The notes beneath the pieces were generated by a model, which saw only the letters and a list, made by a program, of their open reading frames with translations, made no database searches and was not told where the DNA came from. A DNA stretch of 64,000 bases from Bacteroidales bacterium. Lineage in GTDB: Bacteria > Bacteroidota > Bacteroidia > Bacteroidales > VadinHA17. Positions 1 through 53,896 of this stretch are shown here, in pieces; position 1 is the stretch's first letter, and each line of letters starts with the position of its first letter. The stretch spans positions 731 to 64,730 of the forward strand of contig JALVJE010000153.1 of assembly GCA_027028505.1 (NCBI GenBank), read 5' to 3'. The translations under genes were made by a program, and so were the position numbers.

Positions 1-8
1 CACTTTTC

Positions 9-64
9 GACCTTCGCCATTCGCCATTCGCCGTTCATCCTTCCTTTTGCCTTCTGCCTTTCTT
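9..64. repeat. Heptanucleotide tandem array (8 in-phase units)
   Basis: GACCTTC GCCATTC GCCATTC GCCGTTC ATCCTTC CTTTTGC CTTCTGC CTTTCTT. Confidence 0.9.
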
Positions 65-102: not shown

Positions 103-103
103 T

Positions 104-152
104 GCCTTTTGCCTTTTTACTTTTGCCTTTTGCCTTATTACTTCTGCCTTCT
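104..152. repeat. Heptanucleotide tandem array (7 units, GCCTTTT type) running into the GRE stop codon
   Basis: GCC-initiated units are in phase at 104, 111, 118, 125, 132, 139 and 146. The last unit overlaps the stop at 151-153. Confidence 0.85.
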
Positions 153-2514: not shown

Positions 2515-2593
2515 GTCAGTTTCGAGTTTCGAGTTTTGAGTATCGAGTTAATAGTATCGAGTTATCCGTTCATCTTTCATCGTTCGTCGTTCC
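2515..2593. repeat. Heptanucleotide tandem array filling the whole activase-GRE intergenic spacer
   Basis: GTTTCGA GTTTCGA GTTTTGA GTATCGA GTTAATA GTATCGA GTTATCC GTTCATC TTTCATC GTTCGTC GTTCC. Confidence 0.9.
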
Positions 2594-3666: not shown

Positions 3667-3866
3667 GAAATTAGCTCACTGCATTGCCCGCCGAAGGCTT
3701 GCCGGAGGCTGGACGTTCGCGAAATTAGCCCCGACTGCGTCGGGTCGAAATTTAGTAGAAATTAGTTCGCTAACGCGAACGAAATTTACTCGCTGCCTTG
3801 TCCGCCGAAGTTCCCATAAGGACGAAGGCGGAACGCTCGTGAAATTAGCGCCTGCGGCGCGTCATT
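3667..3866. repeat. Array of six GAAATT(A/T)(G/A) units, each followed by a different GC-rich hairpin
   Basis: Units start at 3667, 3721, 3747, 3758, 3781 and 3841. Hairpins include CCCGAC-tgc-GTCGGG, GTTCGC-taa-GCGAAC and GCGCC-tgc-GGCGC. The two long units (3667, 3781) are ~55-60 nt and homologous. Confidence 0.85.
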
Positions 3867-3920: not shown

Positions 3921-4021
3921 CTCATCGCTCATAGCTCATCGCTAACTTTTCCCACTCTTCAGACTTTTTAGACTTTTTGACTTTTTGACTTTTGACCTTC
4001 GAGCATCGACATTCGACCTTC
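3921..4021. repeat. Short-period (7-9 nt) tandem arrays ending on the Omp85-like stop codon
   Basis: CTCATCG CTCATAG CTCATCG at 3921-3941. Then GACTTTTTA GACTTTTT GACTTTTT GACTTTT GACCTTC GAGCATC GACATTC GACCTTC at 3962-4021. Confidence 0.88.
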
Positions 4022-7577: not shown

Positions 7578-7629
7578 AATACCCGGATAAAACGAATAAT
7601 ACGCCGGTTTTCAACTAACCAACAAAAAC

Positions 7630-7657
7630 TTGAAACATGGAACATGGAACCTGAAAC
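7630..7657. repeat. Heptanucleotide tandem array (4 units) abutting the pepD stop codon
   Basis: TTGAAAC ATGGAAC ATGGAAC CTGAAAC, followed directly by the stop (7658-7660). Confidence 0.85.
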
Positions 7658-9121
7658 CTATTCTTTTACAGGCACATGTTTCAGCGTTTCCACCAGGAAG
7701 TCCCAAAATTTTTGCACCGAAGCAATGTTCACTTTTTCGTCGGGCGAGTGGGGATAGCGGATCGTAGGACCGAAAGAGATCATGTCCAGTCCGGGATATA
7801 CCCCTCCCAGCAGTCCGCACTCCAGACCGGCATGGATGGCCTTGATCTCGGGGATCTTTCCGAACCGGTTGTTGTAGATCTCACGCATCTCTTTCAGGAT
7901 GGGTGAAGCCATATTGGGTTTCCAGCCGGGATATTCTCCGTCGAAGGTCACCTCGCCACCAGCCAGGGAGGCAATGCTGCTGAACACATTTTTCAGGTCT
8001 TCCCGTGCCGTATCCACCGAGCTGCGCAACAGGCACAGCTCCTCGAATGTCCCATTGGACATACGTATCACGGCCACATTGTTGGAGGTCTCTACCAGCC
8101 CCTCCATGTCGGTACTCATACGGATCACCCCATGCGGGCTGGCATACAATGCATCCAGGATCTTTTCCTGCGATTCCGTATCCATGACCTTGGCAGGTGT
8201 CTCGCTACGTTCAGCCGTCACGGTGACCCAGGGATCTGCTGAGCTCAGCTCATCTTTGAGCACCTGCTCCATTTCGGCTATGTATTTCACAAATGCCTCC
8301 GAATTATCTTCCGGAACGGTCACCACGGCATAAGCCTCCCGCGGGATGGCATTGCGCAGATCCCCTCCTTTCATATCCGCTATGCGTATCCTATAAGCCC
8401 GCGCAGCAGTCCACAGGACACGGTTCAGCAATTTATTGGCATTGCCCCGTTCGAGAGCAATATCCACCCCTGAATGTCCCCCTTTCAGGCCGGTGAGGGA
8501 TATTTTGTATCCCACGTGCCCGGCAGGCACTGCCTCTTCCTTATATTTATAAAAGAGATTGGCATTGGTACCACCGGCACAACCCACATACAATTCCCCT
8601 TCATCTTCAGAGTCCAGATTGATCAGGATCTCTCCCTGAAGGATACCGGGCTTCAACCCGAAAGCGCCCGTCATCCCGGTCTCTTCATCAATGGTAAAAA
8701 GCGCCTCAATGGGACCGTGCTGCAAATCTTTGGACTCAAGGACAGCCATGGTGGCAGCCACCCCGATCCCGTTATCGGCCCCCAGCGTAGTGCCCTTGGC
8801 AGTGACCCACTCCCCATCAACATAGGCATCTATGGGATCCTTCTCAAAATCATGATCCACATCATTGTTCTTCTGCGGCACCATATCCAGATGCCCCTGC
8901 AGGATCACCCCCTTGCGGTTCTCCATCCCCGGCGTGGCCGGTTTGCGGATGATCACGTTCCCCACCTCATCCACGATGGTTTCCAGTCCCAAACGTTCAC
9001 CGAACTCTTTCATGAACGCAATGACTTTCTCCTCTTTTTTGGACGGACGGGGTATTTGTGTTAACTCATAAAAATGTTTCCAAACCTCTTTGGGTTCCAG
9101 ATTTAAGATCTCTTTGCTCAT
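7658..9121 (-). CDS. pepD: Aminoacyl-histidine (Xaa-His) dipeptidase, M20 family
   Basis: 487 aa. N-terminal LEPKEVWKHFYELTQIPRPS and metal-site motif GHLDMVPQKN are typical of PepD. Confidence 0.9.
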   Translation of the reverse strand: MSKEILNLEPKEVWKHFYELTQIPRPSKKEEKVIAFMKEFGERLGLETIVDEVGNVIIRKPATPGMENRKGVILQGHLDMVPQKNNDVDHDFEKDPIDAYVDGEWVTAKGTTLGADNGIGVAATMAVLESKDLQHGPIEALFTIDEETGMTGAFGLKPGILQGEILINLDSEDEGELYVGCAGGTNANLFYKYKEEAVPAGHVGYKISLTGLKGGHSGVDIALERGNANKLLNRVLWTAARAYRIRIADMKGGDLRNAIPREAYAVVTVPEDNSEAFVKYIAEMEQVLKDELSSADPWVTVTAERSETPAKVMDTESQEKILDALYASPHGVIRMSTDMEGLVETSNNVAVIRMSNGTFEELCLLRSSVDTAREDLKNVFSSIASLAGGEVTFDGEYPGWKPNMASPILKEMREIYNNRFGKIPEIKAIHAGLECGLLGGVYPGLDMISFGPTIRYPHSPDEKVNIASVQKFWDFLVETLKHVPVKE

Positions 9122-10976: not shown

Positions 10977-10989
10977 AGGGTGGTTTTTA

Positions 10990-11112
10990 GTTCAGAGTTC
11001 AGAGTTCACAGTTCAAAGTTCACAGTTCAAAGTTCACAGTTCAAAGTTCACAGTTCAGAGTTCAAAGTTTAGAGTTCAAAGTTTAGAGTTCAAAGTTTAG
11101 AGTTCAAAGTTT
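10990..11112. repeat. Heptanucleotide tandem array (~17.5 units, GTTCANA / GTTTAGA)
   Basis: GTTCAGA x2, then (GTTCACA GTTCAAA) x3, GTTCACA, GTTCAGA, then (GTTCAAA GTTTAGA) x3, then GTTCAAA. It fills most of the nnr-lipoprotein spacer. Confidence 0.95.
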
Positions 11113-16427: not shown

Positions 16428-16461
16428 GAAGAAATACGATGACCGAAATGTGCTGCGCCTT

Positions 16462-16521
16462 GAACAAGGAACTGTGAACTACGAACTATGAACTATGAAC
16501 TATGAACTATGAACTATGAAC
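16462..16521. repeat. Heptanucleotide tandem array (8.5 units, GAACTAT; reverse complement of the GTTCA type)
   Basis: GAACAAG GAACTGT GAACTAC, then GAACTAT x5, then GAAC. It is followed immediately by the terminator. Confidence 0.95.
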
Positions 16522-16552
16522 AAAAAAAGGAGGTCCCCGACCTCCTTTTTTT
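16522..16552. terminator. Bidirectional intrinsic terminator
   Basis: An A7 run, then stem GGAGGTC / GACCTCC, then a T7 run. It sits between the convergent SiaC-like gene (+) and the tRNA (-). Confidence 0.8.
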
Positions 16553-23419: not shown

Positions 23420-24485
23420 GCTTTTGACCCGGCCGGGGCTCCTCTCCCGGCTTCATGCCGTTCATCTCATACAGATATTTCAGACGGATGGCATACTGCT
23501 GCGATATGGAATACATCGTCTCCCCCTCTTTTACAATATGCTCCTTTTTCCCCAACTCCGCCTGCTTTCGCTTGGGCTGCAAATACAGGATCTCACCCTC
23601 TTTCAGGGTAGCATGCTTGTCCAGCTCATTGTATTTGGGCAGCTCTCCCGGTACCAGTCCCAGCTCTTTGGTCAGCGACTCAAAAGTATCCCCTTTCCGC
23701 ACAATGATATAGTTCACCCGGTTGTTCATCATCACCTGTCGCCGGCCGGCGGGAGCCACCGTAAATTCTTCTGACATCTCCGGCGGAGAAGCTGTCTCTG
23801 ACATCTCCGGCGGAGAGGCTGTTGACGACATTTCCATACTGTTGGCCGTAGTGTCCCTGACACCGGACGGATTCGGTGTTCCTTCGGCTACAGCAGTGGA
23901 AGATGCCGCCGGGGGATTGTATTTCCTGCTGTCCAACTCATACAAGCGGTTGTCTTCAATGATCCCGATCAATAACTGTGCATAGTGCGGATTGGTGGCA
24001 TAACCGGCCTTTTTCAGACCCTTTGCCCAGGCTTTGTAATCGTCAGGAGGCAGTTTGAAAAGGAAAGCATACCGGTTCTTGTTCATCAAAAAATCCGAAT
24101 GGTCCCGGTAAGATTCTTCCACATTATTGTATTTCCTGAAACATTCATGCTTGGAGTCATCGTCATAGTAGATCTTTTTCCCTGTCCAGTCACGGTGGCA
24201 TTTGATCCCGAAATGGTTCTTGCCATATATGGCCAGGTAGCTGTTCCCGTCGTTCGACTCGAGCAGGGCCTGGGCCATGGTGATACTGGCCGGAATACCG
24301 GTGCGGTGCATCTCTTCAATGGCCAGGGGCGCGTATTTCTCAATGTACTGGGCACGCTCGAGTTTCACCGCCGGAGAGACCGATGCCACTTTCCGGGAAC
24401 TGCCGCATCCCGAAAAAAGGAACAACACTGCCAGCATGATCCCTGCTGTCACATAGTAGCGGTATCCGGTAATACATTTATACAT
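23403..24485 (-). CDS. Lipoprotein with N-acetylglucosaminidase (FlgJ-like) domain and two C-terminal LysM domains
   Basis: Start moved to the internal Met (MYKCITG..., lipobox FSGC) at 24485. The upstream ORF extension would overlap cdd on the opposite strand. Glucosaminidase motif ITMAQALLESNDG; LysM repeats YIIVRKGDTFESL and HIVKEGETMYSIS. Confidence 0.85.
   Translation of the reverse strand: MYKCITGYRYYVTAGIMLAVLFLFSGCGSSRKVASVSPAVKLERAQYIEKYAPLAIEEMHRTGIPASITMAQALLESNDGNSYLAIYGKNHFGIKCHRDWTGKKIYYDDDSKHECFRKYNNVEESYRDHSDFLMNKNRYAFLFKLPPDDYKAWAKGLKKAGYATNPHYAQLLIGIIEDNRLYELDSRKYNPPAASSTAVAEGTPNPSGVRDTTANSMEMSSTASPPEMSETASPPEMSEEFTVAPAGRRQVMMNNRVNYIIVRKGDTFESLTKELGLVPGELPKYNELDKHATLKEGEILYLQPKRKQAELGKKEHIVKEGETMYSISQQYAIRLKYLYEMNGMKPGEEPRPGQKLKLRK
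23771..23824. repeat. 27-bp in-frame tandem duplication inside the LysM protein gene
   Basis: CTGACATCTCCGGCGGAGA(A/G)GCTGT appears twice, encoding (T/S)ASPPEMSE twice. Confidence 0.85.
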
Positions 24486-37066: not shown

Positions 37067-37116
37067 GCTGCACGGAAACACCCTGCAACCTGCACCTAGC
37101 ACCCAGCACCCTCCCC
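37067..37116. repeat. Heptanucleotide tandem array (about 7 units, CNNGCAC type) between convergent xseB and aspA-fusion genes
   Basis: GCTGCAC GGAAACA CCCTGCAA CCTGCAC CTAGCAC CCAGCAC CCTCCCC. The run is not perfectly in phase, because CCCTGCAA has 8 nt. Confidence 0.8.
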
Positions 37117-44102: not shown

Positions 44103-46508
44103 TCAAAATTCCAGGTTGATCCCTGCCATAAAATGGATCCCTGCCTGGGGGAAATAACCATCCATCACTTTGTGCTGATCGTTTTCATAATACTGATAAA
44201 CCCAGGCGTTGGTTTCGTATTTCACATTGAAGAGGTTTTGTATGGTTCCTCTGATCTCCAGTTTTTTGAAGATACCGGTCCTGATATGCAGGGAGAGGTT
44301 GAGATCATTGAGAAAATAGGGATCCAGCCTCCTTTCTTCACTGGAAGTATTGTCAATATACTGCTTCCCTACGTAACGGGCCAGCCAGTTCACATCCAGC
44401 ATTCCAAAGAACCGGTATGTAAAAGTATTGTTCGCGATCACCCCGGGGGAAAAAGAGATGTCCGTAGTGCCCAGATAAAAGGAGCGTTGTGACCAGGTAT
44501 CCCAGTCGTCCACATATTCGGTAAAATTCAGGATCTTGTTACGGCTCAGGGTAATATTGGCATTCCATGAAAAATTTTGTGTTATTTGTGCCATACCGGT
44601 GATCTCAAGGCCCAGACGGTAGCTTTTCGGCACATTGGTCATGATGGGGATACCCACATCGTTGATCTTGCCGGTCATCACCAGTTGGTCTTTGTAATTC
44701 ATGTAATACAGGTTCGCATGAAAAGTAGCTACTCCTGCCTTCAGGGCCATTCCCGCCTCCAGGTCACGTAACACCTCGGGTCTGGGCTCTGGCCCCTCTG
44801 CAGGAGCTTCCTTGAAATCATACCGTGTCGGTTCCCTGTGTGCCACGGCAAAAGAGGCATACAACGACGACCGGGAGGAAAGATCCCAGGTGATCCCCGC
44901 CTTGGGGTTGAAAAAAAGATAATGGTGGGTCTGCGTAAGATCCCGCTGATCGTCGTCGGGACCCTCCATCCTGTAAGCGATCCCTCGTAACTGAAGATCG
45001 GCATAAAGATACATGCCGGAGATCAGTTCATAATCCGCTTTGGAGTATATGTTGTATTCCTGCTTTAACCCTTTGTTGTCATACCACTGGTGACCTTTTT
45101 CCCCGTTGCTGAAATACCGGGCCCAGATGACCGTGCCGTAATGAGCACCATCATAATAATTCCACCCTCCTCCCGTATTAAGAGAAAGACGGGACCTGTT
45201 CCATTTCAGATTGCCGGTAAGTCCATACATATCATTGTTAAGCCATTTGCGCCGTATCAGATCGGTAGTGGTAATGGTATCTCCCGCCGGCAGGATCACA
45301 TCATCCAGAAGATAATAGGACAGATCCTGGTCCTCCTTGTATTGCTCGTAATATCCCTTCCCCTTGATATAGAACACCGCCAGATTCAGCCAGAGCGGCC
45401 GGGCAAACTCTTTGGAATAAAAAAGCTGCAGATGGTTCTGCAGGTAGTTGTCGGTTTCATTGTCATAATAGCGGACATTCCCCTCCTCATCAGTATATTC
45501 GCCAATTCCATTGTAGCGGCGGTTGGTCTTCAGCATATACCCCGGCACACCATCCCATGCCTGATAGGTCTTTTCCTTGCCGGCCATCACCACCAGCCGG
45601 ACAATATCCTTTTTTTTGCTGTACCAGGCCCCCGTAAAAGCCAGGGAGCCCAGATCAGAGGAAGCCCGGTCGATATACCCGTCAGAGACGATCTTCGAAA
45701 GACGTGTATCAAAGGAAAATCCTTTTTTCAGCAAACCGGATCCCAAAAACAGGGTGTTCCTGAAAGTATTAAATGAACCGCCAAAGGAGGAGATCGCGGC
45801 ATAAGGATCCTTCTTCAGCGAAAAGGTGTGGATGTTAACACTGGCCCCGAAGGCTCCGGCACCATTTGTAGAAGTGCCCACGCCACGCTGTACCTGAATG
45901 TCCGACACAGAAGAAGCCAGGTCGGGCATATCCACCCACCACACCCCGTGACTCTCCGGGTCGTTCTGGGGAATACCGTTGATGGTCACATTGATACGGG
46001 ACAGGTCGGTGCCCCTTATCCGGAAAGCCGTATAACCCACACCCGCACCGGCATCAGAGGTCACCACAACAGAAGGAAGCGACTTGAGGATATACGGCAT
46101 GTCCTGCCCGTTATTCTTCTCTTTCACCTCCCTCTCCGTTACATTGACATAGGGCACCGGCACCTTGTCACCGGCACGGACACCCGACACCACCACCTCG
46201 TCGGTGAGGATGTCGGAAACAGACAGGCTTATATCCACCACGAGATCTCTATCGGCCGTGATCTTTTTTTCATACGACTCATAACCAACATAGCTGACAC
46301 GTAATGCATAATCACCCTCCGGCACACGCTCGATCTTAAATTCGCCGTTATCGCCGGTGACCGTTCCCAGATATGTGCCTGCCAGCATTACATTCGCTCC
46401 GGGCAGGGGTTCCCCCCCTTCGTCGGTCACCCGCCCGCTGATGCGGACCTGAGAGAAAAGCATGATCCCCCAGAACAGGAACATCCCAACAGAAATCAAC
46501 TTCTTCAT
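44103..46508 (-). CDS. TonB-dependent outer-membrane receptor with N-terminal carboxypeptidase-regulatory-like domain; probably thiamine-related cargo
   Basis: Signal peptide, CarbopepD_reg-like GRVTDEGGEPLPGANV, plug and 22-strand barrel pattern, C-terminal ...AGINLEF. A TPP riboswitch lies directly upstream. Confidence 0.9.
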   Translation of the reverse strand: MKKLISVGMFLFWGIMLFSQVRISGRVTDEGGEPLPGANVMLAGTYLGTVTGDNGEFKIERVPEGDYALRVSYVGYESYEKKITADRDLVVDISLSVSDILTDEVVVSGVRAGDKVPVPYVNVTEREVKEKNNGQDMPYILKSLPSVVVTSDAGAGVGYTAFRIRGTDLSRINVTINGIPQNDPESHGVWWVDMPDLASSVSDIQVQRGVGTSTNGAGAFGASVNIHTFSLKKDPYAAISSFGGSFNTFRNTLFLGSGLLKKGFSFDTRLSKIVSDGYIDRASSDLGSLAFTGAWYSKKKDIVRLVVMAGKEKTYQAWDGVPGYMLKTNRRYNGIGEYTDEEGNVRYYDNETDNYLQNHLQLFYSKEFARPLWLNLAVFYIKGKGYYEQYKEDQDLSYYLLDDVILPAGDTITTTDLIRRKWLNNDMYGLTGNLKWNRSRLSLNTGGGWNYYDGAHYGTVIWARYFSNGEKGHQWYDNKGLKQEYNIYSKADYELISGMYLYADLQLRGIAYRMEGPDDDQRDLTQTHHYLFFNPKAGITWDLSSRSSLYASFAVAHREPTRYDFKEAPAEGPEPRPEVLRDLEAGMALKAGVATFHANLYYMNYKDQLVMTGKINDVGIPIMTNVPKSYRLGLEITGMAQITQNFSWNANITLSRNKILNFTEYVDDWDTWSQRSFYLGTTDISFSPGVIANNTFTYRFFGMLDVNWLARYVGKQYIDNTSSEERRLDPYFLNDLNLSLHIRTGIFKKLEIRGTIQNLFNVKYETNAWVYQYYENDQHKVMDGYFPQAGIHFMAGINLEF

Positions 46509-46533: not shown

Positions 46534-46622
46534 TGGAGGGGACAGGTCAAACTCCCTGCGCCGGCATTACCCGGTTCAGGTTCAAAGGGTTTGATCTCAG
46601 CCTGAAAGTAAGGCACCCCTGT
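46534..46622 (-). promoter_or_regulatory. TPP (thiamine pyrophosphate, THI-box) riboswitch
   Basis: The minus strand reads CAGGGGTGCC..GGCTGAGATCAAACCCTTTGAACCTGAACCGGGTAATGCCGGCGCAGGGAG..CCCCTCC. This matches the conserved GGGGUGC / CUGAGA / ACCCUUUGAACCUGAUCUGGAUAAUGCCAGCGUAGGGA core. It ends ~25 nt before the receptor ATG. Confidence 0.88.
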
Positions 46623-46706
46623 AATAACTCATACAAAAATAAGAAGATTTTACAAATAAACCTACAAAATTGATCCCGGATTATGTTTTAAGAAGGTAAA
46701 AAAAAC

Positions 46707-51414: not shown

Positions 51415-51610
51415 GCAGATCCGGAAGACGGGATAGCCCCGGGCGTGTAAAAATAACACAGAAAGCTTCATCATATTGCCTTGCAGCATATTTTTACCGG
51501 AAACATTGCCTTTACCCGGATCAAAAAGATCATTACTTTCTTACTACTTTTAGCAAAGTAATATCTTTTTACCTCTATTATATACTGTATTATTGATCAT
51601 TATACGATCT

Positions 51611-51646
51611 TAACTACGTAGCTAACTACGTAGTTATCTACGTAGT
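51611..51646. repeat. 3 x 12-bp tandem repeat, each unit containing the palindrome CTACGTAG
   Basis: TAACTACGTAGC TAACTACGTAGT TATCTACGTAGT. The third unit overlaps the GT2 stop codon (51638-51640). Confidence 0.9.
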
Positions 51647-52687
51647 TGTATTTTTCTGTAACAAGACTTCTATCTCTTTGAGCTCAGAAAATTTCTTCTC
51701 GCCGTGGAGAAAGAAACGGCTTATGAGCATATGGGGGTAGATCCCTGCAGGGGTGGCTCCGGTATCCGGCGGTATCGCTGCTCTTTTCATTTTCAGCTCC
51801 GGCAGGGACCGCCAGAAAGAGATATGGGCTTTCCATACCGCCACAAAGTGTCCCCATTCCAGGCCGGCCAGGAACTTAAGAGCAGCCACACCGTCGAGGA
51901 GCAGCCGCACGGCCAGGGTCCTGAACAAACGCCCGGAAGGCAGGTTCTTGTACATAAGGAAAAGGTTGTTCCTGAAATTCAGATAGGTCTTGCGGGGATC
52001 CGCCTCGTCAAGTGTGGCCCCACCCTGATGCCATACCCGTGATCCCGGCACAACATAGATCCCCGAGCCGGCTCTCTGGATCCTCCAGCACAGGTCGATC
52101 TCCTCCATGTGGGCAAAGAAAGCGGGATCCAGCCCCCCCGTCTCCCGCCATACCGAAGCCCGCACCATCATACAGGCCCCGCTGGCCCAGAACACCGGCA
52201 TCACAGAATCATACTGCCCCCGGTCCTCCTCCATGACATTGAAGATGCGGCCCCGGCAGAACGTATAGCCATACCGGTCGATGAACCCGCCTGCAGCACC
52301 GGCATACTCAAAACGGTCCCGTTCCTTCAGCGACAGGATCTTCGGCATGCAGGCCCCGGCCCGGGGATGATCTTCCATGAACTGCACCAGCGGCTCCAGC
52401 CACCCTTCCCCCACCTCAACATCCGAGTTGAGGAGAACAAAATGTTCGGCCTCCACCTGTTGCAGAGCCCGGTTGTACCCCTCCGCAAAACCATAGTTGC
52501 GGTCCAGCGCGATCACCCGCACCTGCGGATAATGCTTCGCCAGCCAGGCCACCGAATCATCCTGAGAACCGTTGTCAGCTACGATCAGTTCAGCCTCTTT
52601 GCAAGTCCTCTCAACCAACAGAGGCACAAAACGTTCCAGCAATTCCCGGCCGTTCCAGTTCAGTATCACCACCGCAACTTTTGCCAT
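51638..52687 (-). CDS. Glycosyltransferase family 2
   Basis: VAVVILNWNG ... ADNGSQDDS ... LNSDVEV DXD-type motifs. 349 aa. Confidence 0.87.
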   Translation of the reverse strand: MAKVAVVILNWNGRELLERFVPLLVERTCKEAELIVADNGSQDDSVAWLAKHYPQVRVIALDRNYGFAEGYNRALQQVEAEHFVLLNSDVEVGEGWLEPLVQFMEDHPRAGACMPKILSLKERDRFEYAGAAGGFIDRYGYTFCRGRIFNVMEEDRGQYDSVMPVFWASGACMMVRASVWRETGGLDPAFFAHMEEIDLCWRIQRAGSGIYVVPGSRVWHQGGATLDEADPRKTYLNFRNNLFLMYKNLPSGRLFRTLAVRLLLDGVAALKFLAGLEWGHFVAVWKAHISFWRSLPELKMKRAAIPPDTGATPAGIYPHMLISRFFLHGEKKFSELKEIEVLLQKNTTT

Positions 52688-52764
52688 CTTGTTATTTACT
52701 ATTTTTCATATGTTTAAATATACTTTCATATTTCTAACACCTTTCCCTATTTACGCTCTGTGAA

Positions 52765-52967
52765 GTTCTCGGTTCACGGTTCATAGTTCACAGTTCATAG
52801 TTCATAGTTCACAGTTCATAGTTCACGGTTCATAGTTCACGGTTCATAGTTCACGGTTCATAGTTCACGGTTCATAGTTCACGGTTCATAGTTCACAGTT
52901 CACAGTTCATAGTTCACAGTTCATAGTTCACAGTTCATAGTTCACGGTTCATAGTTCACGGTTCATC
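52765..52967. repeat. Heptanucleotide tandem array, 29 phase-perfect units (GTTCATA / GTTCAC[AG])
   Basis: 203 nt with every unit starting GTTC. There is a 14-nt higher-order alternation. It ends 5 nt from the acyltransferase stop, and the periodicity continues as GATCATC ATTCATC into the coding end. Confidence 0.97.
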
Positions 52968-52972
52968 GATCA

Positions 52973-53896
52973 TCATTCATCATTAGTTGTTCCATACACT
53001 ACATTCTTCTTCTCCCGCACCTGCCGGATGTATTTCCAGCGCCGGTGACTCCAGAGCCAGTACTCGGGAGCCTCCCGGATAAAACCCTCCAGCATCCTCA
53101 CGTGTTTCTCCGTGATCGCATACGGTTTTTCTGCACCGGGATCGGGACAGCAATCATGTATCTCCAGACGGTAGTATCCCCTTTTCTTTTTCTTCATCAC
53201 CAGAAAGAACACCGGATCGCCGAATTTTTTCGCCACTTTTTCGATCCCCAGGTACACGGCGGTTTCCTGGTTCAGAAAACGGGTCACATATTCCGTTTCA
53301 AATGGCAGGGGGGTCTGATCGGTGATAAAGTAATACATCGTGGGAATATTCTCCCGATGATATCGAAGGATCGCCCGGTAGACATGATGCAAGGGGACCA
53401 CTTCATCGAGCCAGCGCAGACGTGCTTTGGAGACCAGCCCTTCGATCACCTTATCCTTCAATGGTTTATATATGGCCATCACGTTATATGAAGTCTGCGC
53501 CACAAAAGCGTTGGCCCACTCCCAGTTGCCATAATGTCCCGCCCCAATGACCGTATGTACACCTTTCTTCCGCATTTCCTCGAACCGTTCCAGGTCACCT
53601 TCCCTGATCTCCACCCTTCTCACCAACTCTTTGGTGGGAATATGGATCATTCGGATCTCCTCAACGATCAGGTCACAGAGATGGCGGTAAAACTTCCGCA
53701 TGATCTCTTTCCGCCGCGTCTCTGCTTCATCGGGGAAAGCATTCCGGAGGTTTTCTTCCACCACTTTCTTTCTGTACCCAACAAGGCGGTACAGCACCAC
53801 GTAGATAAAGTCGGAAAGCCCATACAGCAAGGGAGTAGGTATCCATGCAATGGACCAGAGAAAGGCATATGTCAGGTATGATGGGATCTTTTTCAT
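52973..53896 (-). CDS. Lysophospholipid / lipid A late acyltransferase (LpxL/HtrB family)
   Basis: N-terminal TM helix. GAGHYGNWEW (the HX4D/E-type motif of this family). 307 aa. Confidence 0.83.
   Translation of the reverse strand: MKKIPSYLTYAFLWSIAWIPTPLLYGLSDFIYVVLYRLVGYRKKVVEENLRNAFPDEAETRRKEIMRKFYRHLCDLIVEEIRMIHIPTKELVRRVEIREGDLERFEEMRKKGVHTVIGAGHYGNWEWANAFVAQTSYNVMAIYKPLKDKVIEGLVSKARLRWLDEVVPLHHVYRAILRYHRENIPTMYYFITDQTPLPFETEYVTRFLNQETAVYLGIEKVAKKFGDPVFFLVMKKKKRGYYRLEIHDCCPDPGAEKPYAITEKHVRMLEGFIREAPEYWLWSHRRWKYIRQVREKKNVVYGTTNDE

Follow-up and report, generated by a model that had tools for sequence, protein, structure and literature searches.

Tandem heptanucleotide families with the units CCCCAGT, TTGGTCA and CAACAGT, known as STRR, are scattered in the non-coding DNA of heterocystous cyanobacteria. 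Over-represented intergenic heptameric repeats were also described in Xanthomonas (GGGAATC) and Nostoc (GGGGAYT) by Rehm et al. 2015 (PMC4692102), where the Xanthomonas repeats lie between the same genes in related species with highly variable length and sequence, polymerase slippage is hypothesised, and three tandem heptanucleotides in Calothrix PCC 7601 are mentioned. TAACTGA direct repeats were reported by MacGregor 2015 (PMC4679880) in marine Beggiatoaceae, Cyanobacteria and five Bacteroidetes; arrays in the Bacteroidetes comprise as many as 43 copies, interspersed with other heptamers, strains differ by insertions and deletions in 7-nt increments, no RNA structure was predicted, and stop codons in the forward orientation restrict the overlap of TAACTGA with open reading frames (ORFs). 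As cited in these two papers, heptanucleotides were the commonest long simple sequence repeats (SSRs) among units of 5-11 nt in a 2007 survey by Mrazek and co-workers, which proposed polymerase slippage; a hypothesis in the literature for the number seven is that it matches the DNA segment held by the polymerase. In Haemophilus influenzae, the expression of hmw1A is, as experimentally established, inversely proportional to the length of its (ATCTTTC)n repeat, which acts via a long hairpin of the 5' untranslated region (UTR) with a G-rich partner and RNase III cleavage (PMC12721329). Here we describe the heptanucleotide arrays in a 64,000-nt stretch of DNA (the window) of contig JALVJE010000153.1 from a Bacteroidales bacterium (GCA_027028505.1), the largest of which lies at 52765-52967. 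A preliminary description of this DNA knew of no described element with such properties; heptameric SSRs have in fact been published (PMC4692102, PMC4679880), so the kind of element is already described, and the novelty lies in the host lineage, its heptamer units, the array density and the series of relatives compared. Our results make it probable that the arrays are heptanucleotide SSRs resembling variable-number tandem repeats (VNTRs), produced by slippage in registers of 7 and 14 nt, in the transcribed DNA under the least constraint, that after stop codons.

The main array lies between two co-directional genes of envelope biosynthesis:

52765-52984, minus strand: main heptanucleotide array, 29 units in perfect phase (52765-52967) plus three degenerate units across the acyltransferase stop codon.
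52973-53896, minus strand: upstream gene, lipid A biosynthesis acyltransferase family (PF03279, Pfam).
51638-52687, minus strand: downstream gene, family 2 glycosyltransferase (GT2; PF00535, Pfam).
52688-52764, minus strand: non-repetitive A/T-rich leader of 77 nt, from the main array to the GT2 start codon (by inspection).

The 203 nt at 52765-52967 are exactly 29 heptamers, each starting with GTTC and with zero phase slip (13 GTTCATA, eight GTTCACG, six GTTCACA, and one each of GTTCTCG and GTTCATC). This count, the array's hold on most of the acyltransferase-GT2 spacer (about 72% of the 285 nt at 52688-52972) and the continuation of the 7-nt rhythm into the last codons of the upstream gene all agree with the preliminary description. 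Beyond 52967, three degenerate heptamers reach 52984, over the TGA stop codon (52973-52975) and the final acyltransferase codons (...N D E stop, AATGATGAATGA), which share their register with the array. On the sense strand the array reads (TGAACYR)n, for which (UGAACCGUGAACUA)n is the probe form; TGA recurs every 7 nt, and open stretches do not exceed 7 codons in any frame. Tandem Repeats Finder gave 28.9 copies with 79% matches at period 7 and, as the better fit, 15.0 copies with 88% matches at period 14, the effective amplified unit being the 14 nt TGAACCG TGAACTA or TGAACTG TGAACTA.

Chance does not account for these arrays. A self-match scan of the whole window with a strict score (periods 4-14; 30 dinucleotide-preserving shuffles as control) found seven period-7 arrays versus none in the 30 shuffles; four at period 14 are the same tracts, and the other periods gave 0-1. 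In the intergenic segments (4,571 nt), 10 period-7 arrays were found, whereas 200 dinucleotide shuffles yielded 0.065 on average and never more than 1, with 0-1 arrays in the observed segments at the periods from 4 to 12 other than 7. The comparison with shuffled intergenic sequence that had been proposed for the family thus gave an excess of period-7 arrays far over chance. Arrays fill 603 of the 5,717 non-coding nt of an ORF-based gene map, about 10%.

The arrays are also not an assembly artefact. Array edges are identical in scaffolds 401 and 3673 of ENA ERZ23491094 and in Logan SRR13622961 contigs, and the 123-nt array at 10989-11111 is spanned by ENA scaffold_401 with 100% identity. In the main array, one ERZ23491094 scaffold stops about 4.5 units in from the acyltransferase side and another 118 nt in from the GT2 side; SRR13622961 breaks inside it likewise, and all overlapping sequence is identical to the window. 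The unit count of 29 comes from a single assembly, since both others break within the array.

Two further arrays, one of them followed directly by a terminator, bear on how the units change:

10989-11111, minus strand: array of 17.6 units, sense (TGAACTN)n, in two 14-mer blocks, forming most of the 150-nt YjeF-to-DUF4831 spacer (Tandem Repeats Finder).
16461-16521, plus strand: array of 8.7 units, sense (TGAACTA)n, in the 3' UTR of a SiaC-family gene (Tandem Repeats Finder).
16521-16552, no strand assigned: intrinsic-terminator hairpin of canonical form, A7-GGAGGTC-loop-GACCTCC-T7, directly after the 16461 array.

Identity within the main array at lags 7, 14, 21 and 28 is 0.79, 0.94, 0.81 and 0.89, respectively, and the 10989 array gives 0.82 at lag 7 and 0.95 at lag 14; its (AACTTTG AACTCTA) units form one block and its (AACTTTG AACTGTG) units the next. 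Array edges are degenerate and centres homogeneous. The alternation of units is a 14-nt higher-order repeat, of the kind that amplification of an already diverged pair in a 14-nt register gives. It had previously been taken to argue against slippage, a view that the higher identity at lag 14 (0.94-0.95) than at lag 7 (0.79-0.82) and the 14-mer blocks do not support. Moreover, whole units are gained or lost between strains. A contig from a sister sample (SAMN10217873) encodes an identical 126-aa SiaC-family protein and carries five GAAC units versus nine in the window, a difference of exactly 28 nt, or 4 units. This comparison of unit counts between strains, which the preliminary description had recommended and which was run at 16461-16521, bears the mark of slippage or unequal exchange, as does the turnover of units and lengths among relatives.

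The remaining arrays of the window were delimited with Tandem Repeats Finder:

2518-2592, minus strand: two abutting arrays, sense (GAACGAY/GATGAAM)n and then (AACTCGA/TACTCRA)n, occupying the entire 79-nt spacer between the pyruvate formate-lyase activating enzyme and pyruvate formate-lyase genes.
7626-7659, minus strand: array of 4.6 units, sense GTTYCAK (the exception in orientation), over the stop codon of an M20 peptidase gene.
103-150, minus strand: array, sense (AAGGCAA)n, starting at the pyruvate formate-lyase stop codon.
6-64, minus strand: further period-7 units, sense GGCGAAT and AAGGCAG types, past a GC-rich hairpin-like element at about 64-102.
3921-4021, minus strand: composite repeat tract from the stop codon (4020) of an Omp85-family gene, with period-7 units, a period-8 tract (GACTTTTT, 3962-3993) and (CTCATCG)x3.3 at 3921-3943.
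37067-37116, no strand assigned: weak period-7 tract between two convergent genes, CACCCWG in 4.7 copies with 80% matches (37079-37111).

All the array loci listed in the preliminary description exist, with the corrections that 3962-3993 has period 8, that 37079-37111 is weak and that an entry given as 16462-21 means 16462-16521. The GTTCA/TGAAC core is found in four arrays (2567-2592, 10989, 16461 and 52765) instead of the three first counted. The 64-kb window holds at least eight distinct heptamer units, and copy number across the arrays ranges from 3 to 29.

Every array in the window follows a stop codon; five begin with the stop codon itself, in keeping with the earlier remark that several touch or overlap one, and the rest begin within a few nt. 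The coding fraction of the arrays is at most 0.06, any overlap with ORFs being restricted to their final codons. Toward the next gene, some arrays stop 4-13 nt short of its start codon, and in several cases the gene before the array is a terminal one. The seven divergent, promoter-only spacers contain no array nt in 1,786 nt, whereas arrays make up 499 of the 2,619 nt of co-directional spacers and 111 of the 316 nt of convergent ones; counted by the number of spacers, which are few, the contrast is not significant. The array at 16461-16521 sits between the stop codon of the SiaC-family gene and the terminator hairpin (fold z = -3.8), which is common to this gene and a convergent tRNA-Met gene. 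Because the terminator lies after the array, the array is inside the transcript, as part of the 3' UTR, and is not the terminator itself.

Within the arrays, little RNA structure is predicted. No structured RNA was found in array-only stretches, where centroids are nearly empty and fold z-scores run from -0.8 to +2.6; the two clearly negative z-scores come from stretches with a terminator or a small GC-rich hairpin beside the arrays. The whole main spacer has a fold z of 0.23 and a centroid almost empty within the array. At gathering score, Rfam 15 returned no match in the arrays, and its only matches in the window were two tRNAs and a thiamine pyrophosphate (TPP) riboswitch. The arrays were also considered as intrinsic terminators and rejected, as there is no G+C-rich hairpin within them, and a promoter and terminator scan gave only pseudo-promoter matches induced by the repeats. 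As a separate observation, the loop of the terminator at 16521-16552 is inverted between strains (GGAGGTC-CCCG-ACCTCC in the window, GGAGGTC-GGGG-ACCTCC at about 1072-1103 of locus L220), which looks like a hairpin-loop flip, as template switching would give.

The same spacers were compared in relatives of the host. The best acyltransferase match among 185,579 species genomes has 45% identity and comes from a Bacteroidota metagenome-assembled genome (MAG), with Bacteroidales MAGs next; the host, which has DUF4831, pyruvate formate-lyase and a GC content of about 51%, belongs to the Bacteroidota and is uncultured and Bacteroidales-like. Relatives gathered via the DUF4831 and acyltransferase proteins, at 57-93% identity, keep the gene order. 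Their acyltransferase-GT2 spacers, beside that of the window, contain:

Window: (TGAACYR)29.
Relative at 93% identity (four assemblies): (TAAYGAA)6, with the stop codon within the array.
Relative at 85%: (GAYGAAC)12, a small hairpin and (AATGTAG)4.
Relative at 74%: 42 nt, no clear array.

Other spacers behave in the same way. The YjeF-to-DUF4831 spacer has 17 units here, four TGAACT-type units in one relative and four ACTCGAT units in another, and the spacer before pyruvate formate-lyase is filled by (GAATATC)3(GAATAAT)4 in one relative. Directly after the orthologous acyltransferase stop codon, distant Bacteroidales (a MAG and two Butyricimonas species) carry short arrays of the A-rich heptamers AATTAAG, AATTTAG and AAATCTA (L021 10850-10876, L037 10864-10887 and L058 10895-10919). 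The array count is 10 in the window, 0-3 in near relatives, and none or one weak array in the most distant ones. Array position is thus conserved while unit and length turn over, which is concerted evolution of a satellite-like tract.

Arrays also reach into the genes that they follow. In L094, the relative at 85%, array makes up the final 43 nt of the acyltransferase ORF and the protein is 8 residues longer (RRTMNDER; ...TMNDERRTMNDER). After the conserved ...KKNVV(Y/F)G, the acyltransferase tails of homologues 78-100% identical are TTNDE, RMNNE, TTNDDR, MTNDE, TMNDERRTMNDER and TMLNETGISGTRVN (52976-52990 in the window). Because the ORF end lies in a heptamer array, these annotated C-termini are repeat-encoded. 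Separately, three assemblies of the relative at 93% (L090, L091 and L093) end at the same base, 191 nt past the acyltransferase stop codon, with C-rich and then G-rich sequence in the last 160 nt; this shared end is probably the edge of another repeat or mobile element replacing the GT2 junction.

Heptamer arrays also occur beyond these relatives. Period 7 is the commonest in 1.27 Mb of DNA from 80 further Bacteroidota genomes (11 arrays versus 0-4 at other periods), with an array density about 12-fold below that of the window, and 3 of the 11 directly follow the orthologous acyltransferase gene. Metagenome contigs were then scanned by the exact pattern (TGAACYR)4.7; at least 120 stretches matched, and 80 were examined as loci (447 kb, 34-69% GC). 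These loci have 152 period-7 arrays versus 0-9 at other periods, the 14-nt harmonic apart, and 50 of the arrays have no GAAC/GTTC core, some of them being STRR-like. Eight of 10 large ORFs tested there encode bacterial housekeeping proteins such as PNPase, IF-2, Mfd and ArgH (NCBIfam), functions that point to no particular lineage. The preliminary idea that the arrays are lineage-specific is contradicted by the occurrence of (TGAACYR)n in at least 120 metagenome stretches and by the heptameric repeats published in other groups. Two metagenome contigs (L140 and L175) have long AAACCCT (telomere-type) arrays and a tract of about 1 kb of AATGGTT units; because they look like eukaryotic subtelomeric DNA, TGAACYR-type arrays would not be restricted to bacteria. 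A rule by which GAAC falls on the sense strand was tried and rejected. The count of four in five for the window, made in the preliminary description, is correct; however, it is not significant alone and not general, as the ratio among co-directional metagenome pairs is 12:17 or, with stricter ORFs, 8:16. Metagenome arrays abut stop codons in both orientations.

Set beside the described systems, the window arrays resemble the Xanthomonas and Nostoc heptamers in their tandem 7-nt units, excess over other periods, intergenic sites and slippage as the proposed origin. They differ in that their units are not G-rich and cannot form G-quadruplexes, that at least eight units occur in 64 kb, that the host is uncultured and Bacteroidales-like, and that most arrays begin at a stop codon. 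With the TAACTGA repeats they share intergenic heptamers, forward stop codons and hence brief ORF overlap, no predicted RNA structure, 7-nt-increment indels between strains, mixed heptamers within spacers, and an AACT core in many units (AACTATG, AACTTTG and AACTCGA versus AACTGAT). In contrast, the BOGUAY repeats of that family are short, with 2-6 copies of a single sequence mostly placed directly before start codons, whereas the window units are diverse, reach 29 copies and are anchored at stop codons. Membership of the TAACTGA family was rejected, no TAACTGA dimer being present in the window at up to 2 mismatches beyond one chance-level match. The STRR heptamers are alike as several-sequence tandem families scattered in the non-coding DNA of one genome, but both phylum and units differ (TGAACYR, AAGGCAA, AACTCGA and others, beside Bacteroidota-type genes), and membership was again rejected because the window units are not CCCCAGT, TTGGTCA or CAACAGT. 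The presence of STRR-like units in some contigs recovered by the TGAACYR pattern suggests that the same genomes host both kinds of array.

The window arrays combine tandem short units, excess over composition, confinement to non-coding DNA and change by whole units, and are long SSRs by these properties. Their defining property is the period, which would come from a mutational process, and not a recognised motif. We infer the slippage mechanism, the near-neutrality and the reason for seven. Strand slippage or unequal exchange at replication would make and remodel the arrays in a 7-nt register, and amplification would shift to a 14-nt register once two variant units alternate. Arrays would arise after stop codons, in 3' UTRs and intercistronic spacers, where DNA is least constrained. 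Expansion would halt at a constraint, which on one side may be the stop codon or dispensable C-terminal codons and on the other the next gene's leader or promoter, or else a terminator. Units would be homogenised within an array by concerted evolution and drift between species, so that position is conserved and unit sequence and copy number are not. The life cycle of an array would thus be to be seeded at a stop codon, amplified in units of 14 nt, encroach on ORF ends, be homogenised and be lost. Of the earlier proposal of a lineage-specific process that generates spacers, a real, period-defined, intergenic family arising by such a process is retained and the lineage specificity is not.

Several points weigh against neutral slippage. 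Arrays persist in the same spacers at 74-93% protein identity and recur after the acyltransferase gene in distant Bacteroidales, and this recurrence could reflect selection for having an array. Read in the sense direction of the gene before them, most arrays in the clade are rich in purines and have a YGAA core. Of the metagenome arrays, 12 of 25 in TGAAC-sense orientation lie within 50 nt of a start codon, versus 1 of 27 in the opposite one, by crude ORF calls that ATG or GTG within the units may bias; this asymmetry may be real. In addition, slippage does not account for the preference for 7, and the neutrality of the arrays is an assumption.

One possibility, which we regard as unlikely, is that the arrays work as spacers at the RNA level. 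As transcribed, unstructured A/purine-rich tracts, or as multivalent platforms for a single-strand RNA-binding protein (S1, cold-shock or RRM-type), they would adjust how well translation of the following cistron begins or how stable the mRNA is. Translation starts in Bacteroidota are reported not to rely on Shine-Dalgarno pairing. The positions are transcribed, with one array between a stop codon and a terminator and several stopping 4-13 nt short of a start codon; centroid structures are almost empty in stretches of array alone, and position is kept across species despite sequence turnover. The purine-rich YGAA sense reading of most clade arrays and the TGAAC-sense excess near start codons, with its crude ORF calls, fit as well, and such a role was proposed for TAACTGA (PMC4679880) and speculated for Nostoc heptamers (bioRxiv 10.1101/2022.06.06.494920). 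However, fold z-scores are not clearly above those of same-composition shuffles, co-directional pairs in the broad sample have no orientation preference (12 vs 17; 8 vs 16), and strains differ in copy number, which runs from 3 to 29. Terminal genes with no cistron downstream (the SiaC-family gene and pyruvate formate-lyase) are followed by arrays too, and more distant relatives have no array, or one weak array, in the same spacers. The many unrelated units per genome and at orthologous sites do not fit a single sequence-specific binder, and the protein- or RNA-binding array of the preliminary description, in the form of one such binder, is unlikely given at least eight units in the window and different units at orthologous sites.

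A stronger version, to which we give still less credence, is that the arrays are selected, stop-codon-anchored and orientation-dependent RNA spacers, which would provide stops in three frames per 21 nt and a protein-binding or ribosome-loading tract, with selection acting on the array state while the unit drifts. If true, it would give a function to the long-unexplained excess of heptamers in bacteria.

That the length of the 29-unit array switches or grades GT2, as a surface-polysaccharide or lipopolysaccharide gene, in the manner of hmw1A phase variation is improbable to a somewhat greater degree. The main array does lie between two envelope-biosynthesis genes, heptamer copy number does change between strains of this species (9 vs 5), and the relation of length to expression in hmw1A is experimentally established (PMC12721329); the hmw1A repeat is a transcribed heptameric SSR of changing copy number upstream of a surface-related gene, and the main array would be comparable in these respects. 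On the other hand, the other arrays flank mostly housekeeping genes (pyruvate formate-lyase, YjeF, peptidases), one of them beside a tRNA gene, and the long hairpin pairing of the hmw type is not predicted in the window, with z = 0.23 and an almost empty centroid in the array. The main array is outside the ORF, is unlikely to lie between promoter hexamers, and is separated from GT2 by the 77-nt unique leader, which may contain a weak, putative promoter of GT2's own.

Very little speaks for an array that acts at the DNA level, with phased sites (3 units = 21 bp) for a transcription factor or nucleoid protein, or by bending. Some regulators bind direct heptamer repeats, for example those of the SARP-LAL type (PMC5930380), and the arrays are regular and phase-perfect. 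The preliminary description had pointed out that 7 x 3 = 21 nt makes two helical turns; however, lag-21 identity (0.81) is below that at lags 14 (0.94) and 28 (0.89), and an organisation by 21 nt is therefore rejected. Furthermore, units vary between arrays and between orthologous sites, length varies freely, and the arrays avoid divergent promoter regions, the usual sites of regulators. Least credible of all is that short-read mis-assembly made the main array or its length: ERZ23491094 and SRR13622961 end inside the 52765 array, leaving the number 29 to one assembly, but independent contigs match both edges without a difference over as much as 118 nt of array, all 123 nt of the 10989-11111 array are reproduced exactly, and relatives from other samples have arrays at the same site.

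Some further repeats and elements were noted in the window. Short GC-rich elements with CCGCCGAAG ... CGAAGGCGG-type motifs occur at 64-102 and 3680-3830, and also in locus L086 (11550-11650 and 10200-10420); the three exact copies of CCGCCGAAG are all intergenic. The CCGCCGAAG-type elements are embedded in or lie beside heptamer arrays, their presence varies at orthologous sites in relatives, and they may represent a small family of REP- or MITE-like elements with insertions in the arrays, although an inverted-repeat search with 9-nt seeds found no REP-like hairpins beside arrays. A 12-nt palindromic unit, TTAACTACGTAG, in 3.2 copies at 51610-51647 overlaps the GT2 stop codon and scores as a terminator-like hairpin. 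At 23770-23835, an in-frame 27-nt tandem repeat of 2.0-2.3 copies lies at the overlap of two long ORFs on opposite strands; it is probably coding, and is unrelated to the heptamer family. The TPP riboswitch (RF00059, 71 bits) at 46536-46630 on the minus strand lies just upstream of an 801-aa ORF (44103-46508, minus strand), whose ortholog in relatives is a TonB-dependent receptor (Plug/TonB_dep_Rec Pfam matches); because of this pairing of riboswitch and receptor, thiamine-regulated uptake is suggested at 44103-46508.

The excess of heptamers in bacteria has long been noted, from the STRR families to the 2007 survey, and is not known to have an accepted explanation, either for the number seven or for a function. 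The window is a very dense example, in which about 10% of the intergenic DNA of an uncultured Bacteroidales-like lineage is heptamer array. Arrays of this kind interrupt short-read assemblies and change C-termini as annotated. The same spacers can be compared across relatives at 57-93% protein identity, so that the life cycle of an array, under the slippage reading that we favour, becomes visible.

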